Shown piece after piece: positions 1 to 17,895 of a DNA stretch of 18,314 nucleotides. Source of the DNA: a virus (lineage: Duplodnaviria; Heunggongvirae; Uroviricota; Caudoviricetes); IMG/VR virus record IMGVR_UViG_2526164632_000031. The stretch is one strand, 5' to 3'. Position 1 is the stretch's first letter. Each line of letters begins with the position of its first letter. The notes beneath the pieces are model-generated. The model was not told the origin of the DNA, searched no databases, and saw only the letters and a list, made by a program, of their open reading frames with translations. Made by a program: the position numbers and the translations under genes.

Positions 1-953
<953 letters not shown>

Positions 954-2688: not shown

Positions 2689-2900
2689 AGCCTGCTTCTC
2701 CTTGCCTTTCGGCACGTAAGAGGCTAACCTACATTTGTGAGACATAGATTGGGCCTCAGATTAATGTTAAGCGTCTTGTAGGACGCGTAATGTTAACTGG
2801 GGCTTTTCTCTATCTGCCTTTTGGTGTTCATGCCTGAGGCAGATAGCCTCAAGCACCCGCAGCAATTCTAACTATCCAATAGATCAATGCCAACTTCTTT
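2689..2900 (-). promoter_or_regulatory. Structured hok mRNA leader region (possible mok/sok-type control region)
   Basis: Several stable inverted repeats (2771-2787 GCGTC..GACGC; 2810-2846 CTATCTGCC..GGCAGATAG; 2834-2850) immediately 5' of hok on the minus strand. Confidence 0.35.
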
Positions 2901-3245
2901 TCCTGCAACATCTCTCATCATAAGTGACCAAAATTCATCCAATCAGCACAAAAGAAACATTTAAAGCGTGAATGCTACCGAACGTTCATTTCAATTACAT
3001 CGTTTTGATTTTTAACAGTTTTTACCTCAACAAATCAAATGGCATTAGCATTCATCATGGAAGAAAGACTGATAAAAATGATCATTTTCAATGACTTATG
3101 ATCACACCGGGTATTGCCAAGTCATTCCTTTTACGCCAGGATACCCACAAGTGAGTAGTCGAGGAGAGTTTGCCAATTTTTGCGATATAAATTTCAATGT
3201 CCGAAGAACCATTAATTGTTAATTGATTCTGTATAAGGTATTAAC

Positions 3246-4343
3246 ATGACAATTTCATATATTCCTATTCTGAAAGCGAAACGTTCTGAGTTATCAGCTT
3301 TATCGCAGCTATCCATTGAAAAGAAATCAAAAATTTTGCCATTACTCGAAATTGAACCAGTGCCAATTGACCCTGATTCAGGTATTGCCTTAAAGAGTTA
3401 TAACGAGACTCTTATAGAGTTCGGAAAGAAAGTCTCAAAATCTTGCTCAGATATGCAAGGTGTTTATATTGATGGATTATTAATTGAAGAGCATTTTATT
3501 TCTCCTGAAGATCATTACCCTATAATAAATGCGGTTAATCAAGTTAGAGATATGGGGATAAGAGTTATTCCTGTCAGTTCACCAACTCGCCCATCTAACT
3601 ATAAAGGAGCGATTGATGAATTAATGCAGAATGAAATATGCTTGAGATTAACCACGTTAGATCTGGTTAACCCACAATTAATAACGCATTACATTAATCA
3701 TCTGGGAATTCCTTTATCAAATATTGATATAATTATTGACTTAAGAGATGAGTTAACCGAGGATAAACTTAATTCCGGCGAACTATATACTTTGGCAATG
3801 GGATTGATAAACAATCTGGCGCACCTCAATGAATACAGAAAAGTGATTCTTTCTGGGGGTTCATTTCCTACAGATCTCAGTGATATTTCTGTTGGTCTAT
3901 ATTCTCAACCTCGAATCGAGTGGATTTTATGGCAGAGTTTAATGAATAGAAAAGAACTTGCCAGAAATGTGATTTATAGTGATTATGGAGTACAGCACCC
4001 CGACTTTAATAGGCTTTCGACGCGATTCCCTAGCGTATCTGCCAGCGTCAGATACTCTGGAGATAATGACTTTTGGGTATTTCGAGGAAGAGTAGCTAAT
4101 CGCTTTGGTTATGAACAATATGGTAAACATAGTGAGGATATTCTTGCTCATCGAGAATATTCAGGGCCTACATTCTGTGCGGGAGATAGAGACATAGAAT
4201 ATTATGCAAACGAGTATCAAGCCTACAAAGCCAATCCCTCTGGTAACTATAAATTTGGTAGCCCAGAGGTATGGCGTAGGATTGGGCAAAACCATCACAT
4301 AACTAAGGTTGTTGAGCAACTCGCCACTCTTTACGGGCTTTAA
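3246..4343 (+). CDS. Uncharacterized cargo protein with Beta-protein / sce7725-like N-terminus
   Basis: 365-aa ORF, AAGG RBS 8 nt upstream, AT-rich codon usage; N-terminus MTISYIPILKAKRSELSAL resembles the Y-[IV]-P-[IV]-L-K-x-K-x-x-E start I associate with the Beta_protein (PF14350) / sce7725 family. Confidence 0.8.
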   Translation: MTISYIPILKAKRSELSALSQLSIEKKSKILPLLEIEPVPIDPDSGIALKSYNETLIEFGKKVSKSCSDMQGVYIDGLLIEEHFISPEDHYPIINAVNQVRDMGIRVIPVSSPTRPSNYKGAIDELMQNEICLRLTTLDLVNPQLITHYINHLGIPLSNIDIIIDLRDELTEDKLNSGELYTLAMGLINNLAHLNEYRKVILSGGSFPTDLSDISVGLYSQPRIEWILWQSLMNRKELARNVIYSDYGVQHPDFNRLSTRFPSVSASVRYSGDNDFWVFRGRVANRFGYEQYGKHSEDILAHREYSGPTFCAGDRDIEYYANEYQAYKANPSGNYKFGSPEVWRRIGQNHHITKVVEQLATLYGL

Positions 4344-4881
4344 GTTTAACTCGAACAGCTTCACGAAGCTCGCCAACATCCATACTATTGGCGAGTTTTG
4401 ACCATAAGACGCGTTTAGGTTTATTTTTCAAATTCTGTAGCTCCCCTACATCACTTAATAGGGAAAGCAATTCATCTTTCCAAAGAAGCATTGTTAAGGA
4501 AAGTTTGTCCACTTGTGGATTCAACTTGCTAGTTCGAATTGTTTTTAAATGGATACCTTGCCGTGCACCTTGCGTAACTTGCTTTATCCCCCACCATGAT
4601 GGAACTATGCTTAAAGCATCATAAAGATGGCAATCAGAGACAACCAACGTTACTTTATCCATCACTGATGAGTAATGTTGCACCTGCGCTGGTAATCTGA
4701 GCAAGTTATCACTTTTGCTCTTCAACTCATAACCATGTATAAGCCCATTGATCACTGCTATATCAGCTCTGCTAGCCCCCAGATTCATCGTAAACTCATC
4801 AATGATTAGGGTGTCAGGATCTTTATGATGATCTCTCAAAATCTTGGCATGCACAGCCTTTCTTACATCAATGTCTCTCAT
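4303..4881 (-). CDS. Uncharacterized cargo protein with PD-(D/E)xK nuclease-like motif (sce7726-like)
   Basis: 192-aa ORF; LIIDEF ... ASRADIAVING ... HGYELKSKSD gives an acidic residue then D-x(n)-E-x-K spacing typical of restriction-endonuclease-fold nucleases. Confidence 0.8.
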   Translation of the reverse strand: MRDIDVRKAVHAKILRDHHKDPDTLIIDEFTMNLGASRADIAVINGLIHGYELKSKSDNLLRLPAQVQHYSSVMDKVTLVVSDCHLYDALSIVPSWWGIKQVTQGARQGIHLKTIRTSKLNPQVDKLSLTMLLWKDELLSLLSDVGELQNLKNKPKRVLWSKLANSMDVGELREAVRVKLKARKEWRVAQQP

Positions 4882-5152
4882 ACCATAGTTGCGCTTTCAT
4901 CGACTCTCTCAAGCCATGATTCTATATCATGGTTCGCATGAATGCCATTTGATATGACCAGTGGTTAAACATTGCACAGAAAAGTGGATGTGTATTTTAA
5001 CAAAAGCAATGACGGCTAACCATGTTGGTATGTCGATAAAATGTTTCAACGTAAGCATTATCTGTTCCGCCCTTTCGGGCGGCCTCCTGATGTTCTGAGG
5101 GTGCAGAAATCCCTCCGGTTAAGGATTAAATTTTTAACAGTGCTAAATTTAA

Positions 5153-10267: not shown

Positions 10268-10662
10268 CGGAATACCTTATTACTGGTTGTGTGAGAACTC
10301 CAGTATACCACCGAGCCTGAAGTGGTAAAAAGACAGGCGCACAACACGAAGGCGCATTTCCGGTATTCATAAAGAGTCGGTCTTGTCTGTTAAATTTAAA
10401 TGGTGGGAGTGCGCCTCCGGTTGTAAATAACGACATTGCTATGTGTAGTCTTTGGCGGCATCAGTTCTACTCCGTGGCTGCCCTGTCGCCCCTTTTTAAA
10501 GTGAATTTTGTGATGCGGTGAATGCGGCTAAGCGCACGCGGCACAGTTAAAAGCATCAGTGTTATGGGTGGATTATCCGGCGTTAATTGTTAACTGGTTA
10601 ACGTCACCTGGAGGCACCAGGCACCGCATCGACAAAATTCATTTGTAAAAATGGAGATAATT

Positions 10663-15712: not shown

Positions 15713-15775
15713 TATTTACTATGGCGGTGTAGCCTCACCGCCATAACAAAACTTTATTTTATGAGAGAAAAGACA

Positions 15776-15970
15776 ATGCGGTATGAAAAAGTCAAACCAT
15801 GTCCGTTTTGTGGTTGTCCATCAGTAACGGTGAAAGCCATTTCAGGATATTACCGCGCAAAGTGTAACGGATGCGAATCCCGAACCGGCTATAGTGGAAG
15901 TGAAAAAGAAGCACTCGAAAGATGGAATAAACGAACTACTGGAAATAATAATGGAGGTGTTCATGTATAA
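15776..15970 (+). CDS. ralR: Lar-family restriction alleviation protein (RalR-like)
   Basis: 64 aa from ATG 15776; MRYEKVKPCPFCGCPSVTVKAISGYYRAKCNGCESRTGY zinc-finger typical of Lar/RalR. Confidence 0.8.
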   Translation: MRYEKVKPCPFCGCPSVTVKAISGYYRAKCNGCESRTGYSGSEKEALERWNKRTTGNNNGGVHV

Positions 15971-16151
15971 AATTACTGCCACTATTGAAAAGGAAGGTGG
16001 CACTCCTACTAACTGGACAAGATATTCAAAATCTAAATTAACGAAATCAGAATGCGAAAAAATGCTCTCAGGGAAAAAAGAAGCAGGCGTTTCCAGAGAG
16101 CAGAAAGTAAAGCTGATAAATTTTAATTGCGAGAAACTTCTGTCCTCGTGA
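15963..16151 (+). CDS. YdaC-like small protein
   Basis: 62 aa from ATG 15963 (GGAGGTG RBS); position between ralR and xis as in Rac. Confidence 0.5.
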   Translation: MYKITATIEKEGGTPTNWTRYSKSKLTKSECEKMLSGKKEAGVSREQKVKLINFNCEKLLSS

Positions 16152-16251: not shown

Positions 16252-16539
16252 ATGGCAATGAATCTTGTGACACTCAAAACGTGGGGAAAACTCAGATATC
16301 CGGATAACCCACCATCAATATCAACGCTGAGACGATGGGCAAGGAATGGAAACATTTATCCTGCACCTGAACTACACGGGAGGAGTTACAGGGTGGTTCC
16401 GGAGGCTTTCTATATCAACCCAAATAAGGTTGATACCGATATAACACACCATCAGCCTAATGGGCGACAAGGGAGAGACAGTCCGTTACTGGAGAAGTTA
16501 AAACATGCAGCGGAAAAAATACGATCCCAATTTGCCTAA
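16252..16539 (+). CDS. xis: Excisionase (lambda Xis-like)
   Basis: 95 aa; 3' end overlaps the int start as in lambda; LKTWGKLRYPDNPPSISTLRRWARNGNIYPAPELHGRSYRV resembles the Xis winged-helix. Confidence 0.75.
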   Translation: MAMNLVTLKTWGKLRYPDNPPSISTLRRWARNGNIYPAPELHGRSYRVVPEAFYINPNKVDTDITHHQPNGRQGRDSPLLEKLKHAAEKIRSQFA

Positions 16540-17581
16540 AAACTTAACATATCGAAGGAGGGACAAAGCATATTACTGGCGCAACCCTCTGACGAAAGAA
16601 GAATTTACACTAGGTAAAATTTCAAGAAGAGATGCAGTAGCGCAGGCAATTGAAGCAAATCATTATATATACAAAAACTACTCTCCTGCTGCCTTAATTG
16701 AAAAGCTTAAAGGGTTCGACTCATTTACTATGGCAGACTGGATTGAACGTTACAAAACGATTCTTATAAGGAGAAAAGTGTCCAGAAATACTTATAAAAT
16801 TCGGGTAAATCAACTGGAGACAATAAAAGAAAAATTGGGAGAGATTTTACTGACAGAAATAACCACTCGCCATATTGCCGAGTTTCTTGATTTGTGGATT
16901 GAAGGAGGGAAAAACACAATGGCAGGATCAATGCGTTCTGTGTTGTCTGATATGTTTCGTGAGGCCATTGTTGAAGGACGTATATCTCAAAATCCAGTAA
17001 CACCAACAAGAGCACCGAAAATAGTAGTTACAAGAGAACGACTGAAACTAAAGACATACAACTGCATCAGGGAGGCAGCAGATCAACTTCCGGCATGGTT
17101 CCCATTAGCTATGGATTTAGCCCTTGTAACAGGACAACGTCGCGAAGACATAACGAATATGCGGTTTAGTGATATTTATGATGATCGTCTCCACATCAGG
17201 CAAATTAAGACAGGAATGATGATTGCTATCCCCCTGTCACTCAGCCTTCCTGTCGCTGGTCTACGGCTTGGTACAGTAGTTGAACAGTGCCGCCTGGTAA
17301 GCCGGGGAGATTATCTAATCAGTGCCGGGATTAGAAAAAACAGCCCTGACGGCAGCATTCACCCGGATGGCCTGACAAAAAAATTTGTCGCAGCCAGAAA
17401 ATTAACAGGTATCCAGTTCAGTGAAAACCCACCAACTTTTCACGAGATCAGAAGTCTGGCTGGACGATTGTACAAAGAAACATGTGGAGAAGAATTTGCT
17501 CAGCGTCTACTTGGCCACACATCGGAGAAGACAACAAAAATGTACCTTGATGAGAGAGAAAAAACGTACGTACTGCTCTGA
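16505..17581 (+). CDS. int: Lambda-family tyrosine integrase
   Basis: 358 aa; C-terminal catalytic region [11 protein letters not shown] ... [16 protein letters not shown] with the conserved His and catalytic Tyr. Confidence 0.95.
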
Positions 17582-17895
17582 TTTTAACGTAAATGGATTG
17601 TTAAATGTATTTTGGTTGTGATATAACCAAAAAAGACCGGAATACAGAAATTCGAGTAAATTTCGGGGAATTTCGGGGAGACGTTTACAACTGATTGATT
17701 TTAAATACAATTAAAAAAGACCGAATACGATTCCTGTATTCGGTCCAGGGAAATGGCTCTTGGGAGAGAGCCGTGCGCTAAAAGTTGGCATTAATGCAGG
17801 CTTAGTTGCCTTGCCCTTTAAGAATAGATGACGACGCCAGGTTTTCCAGTTTGCGTGCAAAATGGTCAATAAAAAGCGTGGTGGTCATCAGCTGA
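17582..17895. other. Prophage/host junction region containing the int-proximal attachment site (core not identified)
   Basis: Non-coding; direct repeats AAAAAAGACCG(G)AATAC at 17629-17645 and 17713-17728; tandem AATTTCGGGG x2 at 17659-17678. Confidence 0.4.
17713..17745 (-). terminator. Hairpin plus T-tract (minus-strand orientation)
   Basis: GACCGAATAC-GATTCCT-GTATTCGGTC (10-bp stem) preceded on the plus strand by AAAAAA, i.e. followed by TTTTTT on the minus strand. Confidence 0.4.

Follow-up and report, generated by a model that had tools for sequence, protein, structure and literature searches.

The DNA analysed here, referred to as the window, is an 18,314-nucleotide (nt) stretch from the IMG/VR virus record IMGVR_UViG_2526164632_000031 (Caudoviricetes), which represents the early/immunity arm of a Rac-like lambdoid prophage. 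Two of its genes, one encoding a Beta-family protein and one an sce7726 protein similar to cII of the satellite P4, converge and share 41 nt at their 3' ends. From comparison with homologous pairs, the shared segment is likely to be a dual-coding junction that has been inherited as part of a mobile cassette of two genes, ordinary for its family and unusually deep for a bacterial convergent overlap. That the layout is inherited and that both frames are coding appears, from the sequence comparisons, close to certain. The junction is defined by the following features.

3246..4343, plus strand: Beta-family gene, 365 amino acids (aa), TAA stop at 4341-4343.
4303..4881, minus strand: sce7726 / P4-cII-like gene, 192 aa, TAG stop at 4303-4305.
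4303..4343, both strands: tail-to-tail overlap of 41 nt, from direct reading of the sequence and from RefSeq coordinates.

The overlap contains codons 354-365 and the stop of beta on one strand, and codons 181-192 and the stop of sce7726 on the other. Its extent is independent of start-codon choice because both limits are stop codons. The identical gene pair with the 41-nt overlap is annotated by RefSeq/PGAP in Escherichia coli FDAARGOS_1059, and the GenBank entry of phage Rac-SA53 has the same pair and the same overlap, with notes that read 'beta' and 'CII phage-like protein'. An earlier, sequence-only reading of this stretch had described an exact 41-nt sharing at 4303-4343, which the sequence, RefSeq and GenBank all confirm; its further statement that the transcripts of the two open reading frames (ORFs), if both are made, would have complementary 3' ends is correct.

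Both ORFs are real genes, with full-length family matches above threshold. The Beta protein matches Pfam Beta_protein PF14350 (E 8e-52, 177.3 bits, cutoff 27) over residues 5-356, equivalent to model positions 1-341 of 342. The PADLOC PD-Lambda-2_C models also match it over its full length (E 2.8e-41 and 6.8e-38), whereas the PADLOC 'beta' model, which represents P4, matches weakly (E 3e-4); a BLASTP comparison with P4 beta gives 23% identity over the full length (E 5e-9). An NCBIfam scan of the protein returned no match at E<=0.01, sce7725_fam (NF033831) included. The AlphaFold2 model (pLDDT 92.5) shows a predicted TIM barrel with a long C-terminal helix at residues 340-362, and fold searches with this model gave generic TIM-barrel matches only, with no specific structural relative. 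A literature search found no paper mentioning PF14350, and a match to the phrase 'beta family protein' proved to be an unrelated 2TM-beta protein.

The minus-strand protein matches NCBIfam sce7726_fam NF033832 (E 2e-56, 191.1 bits, cutoff 70) over residues 1-184, or model positions 1-183 of 184, and the PADLOC 'cll' model (E 2e-28). It is related to P4 cII by BLASTP (28% identity, E 2e-17); P4 cII itself scores 151 bits on sce7726_fam, and close homologs of the window protein bear the precomputed Pfam label PF26915 Phage_P4_cII. The AlphaFold2 model (pLDDT 93.7) is consistent with a predicted PD-(D/E)xK nuclease-like N-terminal domain and a helical C-terminal part. Residues E29, D40, E52 and K54 are invariant in 24 homologs, and the best Foldseek matches of the model are the nucleases SfsA (E 0.01), NucS and Can2, all of them weak (E 0.01-0.2, template modelling score ~0.3). 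No sequence relative was found in the PDB. The family comprises ~5,400 representatives at 50% identity, and in the literature search sce7725/sce7726 appeared only in genome-annotation lists. The sequence-only reading had tentatively placed the two proteins in the sce7725/sce7726 families; the assignment holds for the minus-strand protein, while the plus-strand protein belongs to Beta PF14350 and not to sce7725.

Orientation was surveyed by searching an sce7726 profile against a single genome of each species (398 matches, of which the best 80 were examined) and against viral contigs (140 matches, of which the best 80 were examined, plus extra loci). The 80 genome loci derive from Gamma-, Alpha- and Betaproteobacteria, Myxococcota, Acidobacteriota, Bacillota, Chloroflexota, Patescibacteria, Gastranaerophilales, Gemmatimonadota, Armatimonadota and Desulfobacterota. 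A Beta homolog adjoins sce7726 in 77 of them, and a contig edge cuts off two of the three that have none. All 77 pairs are convergent, and the 3' ends overlap in 75. In the set of viral contigs and extra loci, a Beta partner is present at 82 of 83 loci; these pairs all converge, and 81 overlap. The pooled surveys give 161 pairs from >10 phyla, all convergent and 155 overlapping; clustered at 90% identity they form 70 groups, with the overlap present in 67. Pfam Beta_protein is matched by all 60 partners scanned, two of which also give weak matches to NF033831 (best E 1.5e-4). A separate sample, drawn with PD-lambda-2B-like peptidases as the seed, shows HigB, M78 peptidase and Beta in series, facing P4_cII with a 50-nt overlap, in five of five places. 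P4 itself has gop and beta on the plus strand and cII on the minus strand, convergent across a 27-nt gap with an annotated terminator.

Few loci depart from this picture. Only L108 seems at first to break the rule of convergence, but its beta is disrupted and the remaining 3' fragment still points toward sce7726. In Xenorhabdus koppenhoeferi (L012/L124), the sce7726 gene occurs without any beta. In E. coli PEC209 (NZ_CM168015.1; L178:2047-4458), an IS1A insertion sequence splits beta, and the sce7726 gene is intact and its product identical to that of the window (WP_001204666.1), so the nuclease-like gene can be tolerated when its partner is broken.

Convergence had been regarded as unusual in the sequence-only reading, if the proteins were of the sce7725/sce7726 families; it proposed beforehand that the orientation of homologous pairs be compared and that a uniformly convergent layout would make the arrangement ordinary. 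With 161 of 161 Beta/sce7726 pairs examined convergent, the P4 archetype among them, the arrangement is the family norm. The premise behind that expectation, that sce7725/sce7726 pairs are usually co-directional, is accurate for its own branch, where three of three plasmid loci have the genes on one strand. Two or more architectures thus exist in the sce7726 superfamily, the Beta-type being that of the window.

Frame and register at the junction are conserved together with orientation. The overlap length equals 2 modulo 3 in all 155 overlapping pairs, with the relative frame constant. Register was anchored on the sce7726 Trp186 codon (4324-4326) and the invariant Beta His351 codon (4296-4298), and the spacing between the two is exactly 28 nt in 71 of 81 anchored pairs. 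Exceptions differ by whole codons: +39 nt in Klebsiella/Pectobacterium, +24 nt in Sorangium and +3 nt in two Alphaproteobacteria. The overlap is lost entirely, among anchored pairs, in P4, in L014 and in the frameshifted L013. Tandem duplication was considered as the source of the de-overlap in the Klebsiella group and rejected, the adjacent 39-nt segments being dissimilar (<=14/39 matches). In L013 (Xenorhabdus vietnamensis, L013:1733-2752) the conserved H-L-T-x-V-V-x-Q-L is found in another frame, so that the C-terminus of beta is apparently frameshifted; this copy of the cassette is probably decaying.

The conserved C-terminal motifs of the two proteins face each other in a short segment.

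4317..4344 (approximately), both strands: dual-coding core of ~25 nt, where the motifs conserved near the two C-termini lie.

The C-terminal helix of Beta carries the conserved motif N-H-H-(L/I)-T-x-V-V-x-Q-(L/I)-(A/S)-(S/N)-L, of which the part Q(L/I)(A/S)(S/N/T)L lies in the core. Antisense to it is the conserved sce7726 motif L-K-x-R-x-x-W-R. Codons face each other with position 1 against 1, 2 against 3 and 3 against 2 ('phase 1'), and several residues are coupled through this geometry. The TGG codon (Trp) dictates xCC|Axx on the opposite strand, where Beta has A/S/T followed by S/N/T; L/I/V359 of Beta requires CGA or AGA for the partner Arg187; and the Beta stop is formed on the strand complementary to two partner codons, Leu180 and the invariant Lys181, with the Leu180 wobble base determining whether Beta terminates there or runs on. 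Third-position information reaches 0.99 bit in the core of beta against 0.46 upstream, and 0.91 bit against 0.08 (~11x) in sce7726. Wobble positions are constrained only within the core, and both frames are thus under purifying selection. The overlap length ranges from 11 to 167 nt, with a fixed-register minimum of 20 nt, approximately what the two conserved cores need. Recurrence of layout, frame and register in homologous pairs of many phyla indicates that the overlap is not a chance extension.

These data also bear on the explanation that the overlap is a local accident or an annotation artefact, either through a stop codon lost in the E. coli lineage or because one ORF is spurious. Long convergent overlaps invite this suspicion, since annotated ones are often 3'-end misannotations (124 of 178 of those >60 bp; PMC2478687). 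In the present case, however, both ORFs match their families full-length and above cutoff, and the C-termini of both proteins align with homologs up to the last conserved residues. Frame and register are repeated in 67 of the 70 sequence clusters across many phyla, and stops, unlike starts, leave no ambiguity. Nor are the homologous loci assembly duplicates, as identity falls to ~40% for sce7726 and ~20-30% for Beta. We consider an artefact extremely improbable.

Conservation of the junction may be understood as evolutionary lock-in, which we favour over selection for the overlap itself. Each gene would be read inward from its own outer flank. A base change in the ~25-nt core would affect both proteins and a frameshifting indel there would ruin one C-terminus, which would explain why the register is fixed across phyla. 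Beyond the core, tail length would be set only by the position of the next stop codon, which would account for overlaps of 11 to 167 nt and for the 41 nt found here. Cases in which the junction has been undone are rare and involve whole-codon insertions or a spacer (P4, the Klebsiella/Pectobacterium group and Sorangium). Recombination cannot separate the two genes, because of their overlapping layout. Since there is no space for an intergenic terminator, each transcript would have to end inside the partner gene, and polymerase collision and complementary 3' ends would be unavoidable if both promoters fire.

Several points weigh against this account of the cassette, or against its presumed defensive role. 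Convergence persists after loss of the overlap in P4 and L014, which pure lock-in does not explain; this leaves room for selection on convergent transcription. Other sce7726 branches show other layouts, and Beta-partnered pairs more distant than the best-scoring matches examined might differ. PADLOC calls no system from the two genes alone, and the split beta beside an intact sce7726 gene in PEC209 puts the mutual dependence of the proteins in doubt.

The sequence-only reading had raised the possibility of mutual regulation through transcriptional interference or RNA duplex formation. The overlap would then be a selected cis-antisense device, in which convergent transcription and 3'-end pairing set reciprocal or dampened expression; type I toxin-antitoxin pairs and convergent restriction-modification genes offer parallels. 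Convergence is universal in the Beta/cII branch, the overlap-less lineages included, and no terminator-like site lies between the genes on either strand of the window, so that read-through into the partner is expected. Relatives of the pair moreover act like toxin-antitoxin or abortive-infection systems, in which dosage is important (PMC9122126, PMC9519451, bioRxiv 10.1101/2023.04.06.535777). Yet RNAalifold found no consensus pairs on either strand in 61 register-aligned homologous windows. The overlap length drifts between 11 and 167 nt, and its minimum equals the requirement of the conserved protein cores alone. P4 defends its host despite the 27-nt gap and annotated terminator (PMC9122126), and two sets of codon constraints fully explain the conservation of the overlap. 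A selected antisense device seems plausible to us but rather unlikely, and an inherited dual-coding junction remains the preferred account.

Signals that could shape transcription around the overlap are sparse. In its vicinity neither strand yielded a terminator-like site in a scan for such signals, and Rfam gave no match there. The following local features were noted.

4364..4400, plus strand: local hairpin followed by UUUU, 21 nt 3' of the beta stop and within the sce7726 coding region.
4306-4361: local hairpin in the window's own RNA fold, not conserved.
4919..4948, minus strand: promoter-like site upstream of the sce7726 start at 4881, consensus 9/12, weak.
2859..3245, plus strand: non-coding stretch that separates hok/sok from the start of beta.

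The RNA fold of 4290-4420 has a z-score of -2.6. The hairpin at 4364-4400 is a possible weak terminator of the beta transcript; it is not conserved and is absent from the terminator scan. Promoter-like sites in the region are no more numerous than in shuffled sequences. The beta promoter presumably lies in 2859-3245, where a consensus scan found no promoter-like site on the plus strand.

Comparison between genera shows no alignment upstream of beta, and conservation is therefore confined to the two ORFs. Neighbour clustering, used to look for a third conserved gene, found nothing shared beyond a subset of loci with PD-lambda-2 A/B genes (16 of 80); where present, these components lie directly upstream of beta. 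Bare cassettes occur in varied surroundings: between the Rz lysis genes and the terminase gene Nu1 of other lambdoid prophages (L084:3134-4763, 59-nt overlap), in an integrase-flanked E. coli island (L167:5001-6639, 41-nt overlap) and in Paenibacillus (L168:5001-6624, 32-nt overlap). Such sequence contexts suggest that the bare two-gene cassette is an independently mobile unit. The cassette on a scaffold assigned to the actinomycete Nocardiopsis yanglingensis (L070) is nearly identical to those of Stenotrophomonas (L061/L068/L072), which reflects either a very recent transfer or assembly contamination. GC content is 35-41% over the cassette region of the window and ~50% in its flanks, and the locus is carried by 93 of 5,426 complete E. 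coli genomes.

The prophage arm around the cassette contains int, xis, ralR/RalA, recT, a recE-like gene, DicF, genes for cI-like and cro-like repressors, ydaT and replication genes. These are followed by DUF1627, DUF977 and a zinc-ribbon ORF, then the cassette, then hok/sok, DUF1367 and YbcO. By analogy with its relatives, the cassette is on balance probably defence-related. Protection against lambda and P1 is conferred by gop-beta-cII of P4 (PMC9122126), whose killing activity is triggered by a phage accessory gene (bioRxiv 10.1101/2023.04.06.535777). Because of this homology and of the genomic context, the cassette would most likely be a prophage-carried anti-phage or abortive-infection module, a gop-less core common to gop-beta-cII and PD-lambda-2-type loci.

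The pair could instead be a toxin-antitoxin addiction module, with sce7726 as toxin and Beta as antitoxin, which stabilises the prophage rather than defending its host. According to the summary of Ghisotti 1990 in PMC9122126, Gop is toxic without Beta in P4, and Vassallo et al. term Beta 'a P4 phage antitoxin' (PMC9519451). The window prophage also already has the toxin modules hok/sok and ralR/RalA. On the other hand, the Beta-like protein of PD-lambda-2 (PD-lambda-2C) is required for defence and dispensable for toxin neutralisation (PMC9519451). In PEC209, IS1 has broken beta while the identical sce7726 gene is kept intact, and L108 and L012 keep sce7726 with a disrupted or missing beta. An addiction module consequently appears improbable, and defence remains the preferred function.

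Both hok/sok and ralR/RalA are classical antisense-controlled toxin modules, and they lie in the same prophage arm as the cassette. Further features of the window are listed here.

2533-2858: hok/mok with sok, Rfam 122 bits.
15761-16147: ralR locus, ralR on the plus strand (69 aa) and the RalA small RNA (sRNA) on the minus strand, Rfam 224 bits.
10440-10491: DicF sRNA copy in the same prophage arm.
105-887, plus strand: IS21-type IstB-like ATPase ORF at the left window edge, Pfam IstB_IS21, E 8e-112.
17709-17852: SraC/RyeA and SdsR/RyeB sRNA pair, just outside the integrase gene (16505-17581).

The IstB ORF occupies the slot of DUF1133/Q-like and late genes in the reference prophage L001, and an IS element probably interrupts the prophage at this edge. 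At the other end, the SraC/RyeA-SdsR/RyeB pair marks the host flank and the attachment region of the prophage.

The apparent oddity of the overlap thus resolves into a gop-less, standalone Beta/cII-like prophage cargo cassette. Defence catalogues demand accessory genes, with the result that a standalone two-gene core is missed and the cII-like gene is omitted from PD-lambda-2. The junction provides a stop-defined test case for dual-coding constraint on two proteins, and the natural occurrence of overlapping and separated (P4-type) versions makes a regulatory role of head-on transcription directly testable. What is noteworthy is the depth and exactness of dual-coding conservation, which comes with the implication of an overlooked fourth gene in PD-lambda-2-type systems. 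A bolder interpretation, which we put forward as speculative and rather unlikely, is that the Beta/cII-like pair is an autonomous and very widespread immune module of two genes and the true core of gop-beta-cII and PD-lambda-2, with head-on overlapping transcription as a control element. If this were true, PD-lambda-2 would have four genes, the convergent fourth having escaped notice, and head-on transcription would tie the amounts of the nuclease-like effector and its TIM-barrel partner together. Antisense control of the kind known from type I toxin-antitoxin systems would then exist between two protein-coding genes and be preserved in >10 phyla.

Among known systems, the txpA/RatA and bsrG/SR4 pairs of Bacillus subtilis are 3'-overlapping cis-antisense toxin-antitoxin pairs. 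Like the window pair, they are convergent units whose 3' ends are complementary, and they lie in prophage or cargo regions. In these pairs, however, the toxin is controlled through RNA pairing with a partner that is a non-coding RNA, whereas the window encodes two conserved proteins.

Convergent overlaps make up ~7% of all prokaryotic overlaps (PMC2478687). The window pair resembles those described previously in being of phase 1, the commonest phase when convergent overlaps exceed 4 nt (Rogozin 2002; Palleja 2008, PMC2478687), and in having stop-defined and hence reliable ends. It differs in depth, as real long convergent overlaps are reported to be kept mostly among very close species (PMC2478687), while the junction described here retains its frame and register across >10 phyla.

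The sce7726-sce7725-RES operons (NF033832/NF033831) share the sce7726 family with the window (hhalign probability 97.7%). Their sce7725 has an N-terminal Y-x-P-I-x-K-x-K-x-x-E motif in common with Beta, a weak resemblance (hhalign probability 56%, 37 columns). The order sce7726 (~288 aa), sce7725 (~306 aa), RES was seen on plasmids of Moraxella, Rhizobium and Shinella, at the following loci.

L171:2309-5147: sce7726-sce7725-RES.
L174:2312-5142: sce7726-sce7725-RES.
L175:2282-5148: sce7726-sce7725-RES.

These operons are co-directional (three of three loci) with the RES NAD+ phosphorylase gene last, in contrast to the convergent window pair, which has no nearby RES gene; sce7726 is also longer in them, ~288 aa against 192 aa in the window. 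The operon looks like an uncharacterised toxin or defence module.

P4 gop-beta-cII (Ghisotti 1990; Rousset 2022, PMC9122126) and the window have homologous Beta and cII/sce7726 genes, which in both cases are convergent, non-essential cargo of a mobile element. The elements themselves differ, a Rac-like lambdoid prophage against the P4 satellite, and protein identity is just 23-28%. In P4, gop lies upstream of beta and is co-transcribed with it, whereas the window lacks gop: the region 2750-3245 has no ORF >43 aa, and tblastn with P4 Gop gave a best E of 1.1. P4 cII has a 78-aa C-terminal extension that the window protein lacks, and the two P4 genes are separated by 27 nt and an annotated terminator where those of the window overlap.

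The window Beta fits component C of PD-lambda-2 (Vassallo 2022, PMC9519451) far better than P4 'beta' (PADLOC PD-Lambda-2_C, E 3e-41, against E 3e-4). Among the window ORFs adjoining beta there is no HigB-like component A and no component B with an Xre helix-turn-helix (HTH) domain and an M78 peptidase. PD-lambda-2 was published as three co-directional genes, with no cII-like gene listed, and the published ECOR42 clone, which continues for only 396 nt beyond the stop of Beta, could not contain a full-length cII-like gene. The PD-lambda-2B-like HTH and M78 peptidase occurs in Patescibacteria, Scalindua and unclassified metagenome-assembled genomes, with >7,000 matches at E<=1e-20; the best 120 matches are 63-75% identical to the L076 query, which suggests intense horizontal spread. 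One PD-lambda-2-type copy is situated inside a type I restriction-modification island. At L076:3043-6291 and L182-L186 (e.g. L183:3702-6879), all three PADLOC PD-lambda-2 components (A, E 4e-34; B, E 3e-140; C, E 6e-39) are accompanied by a convergent cII-like gene with a 50-nt overlap. PD-lambda-2-type loci elsewhere therefore have, as in the window, a convergent overlapping cII-like gene beside component C.

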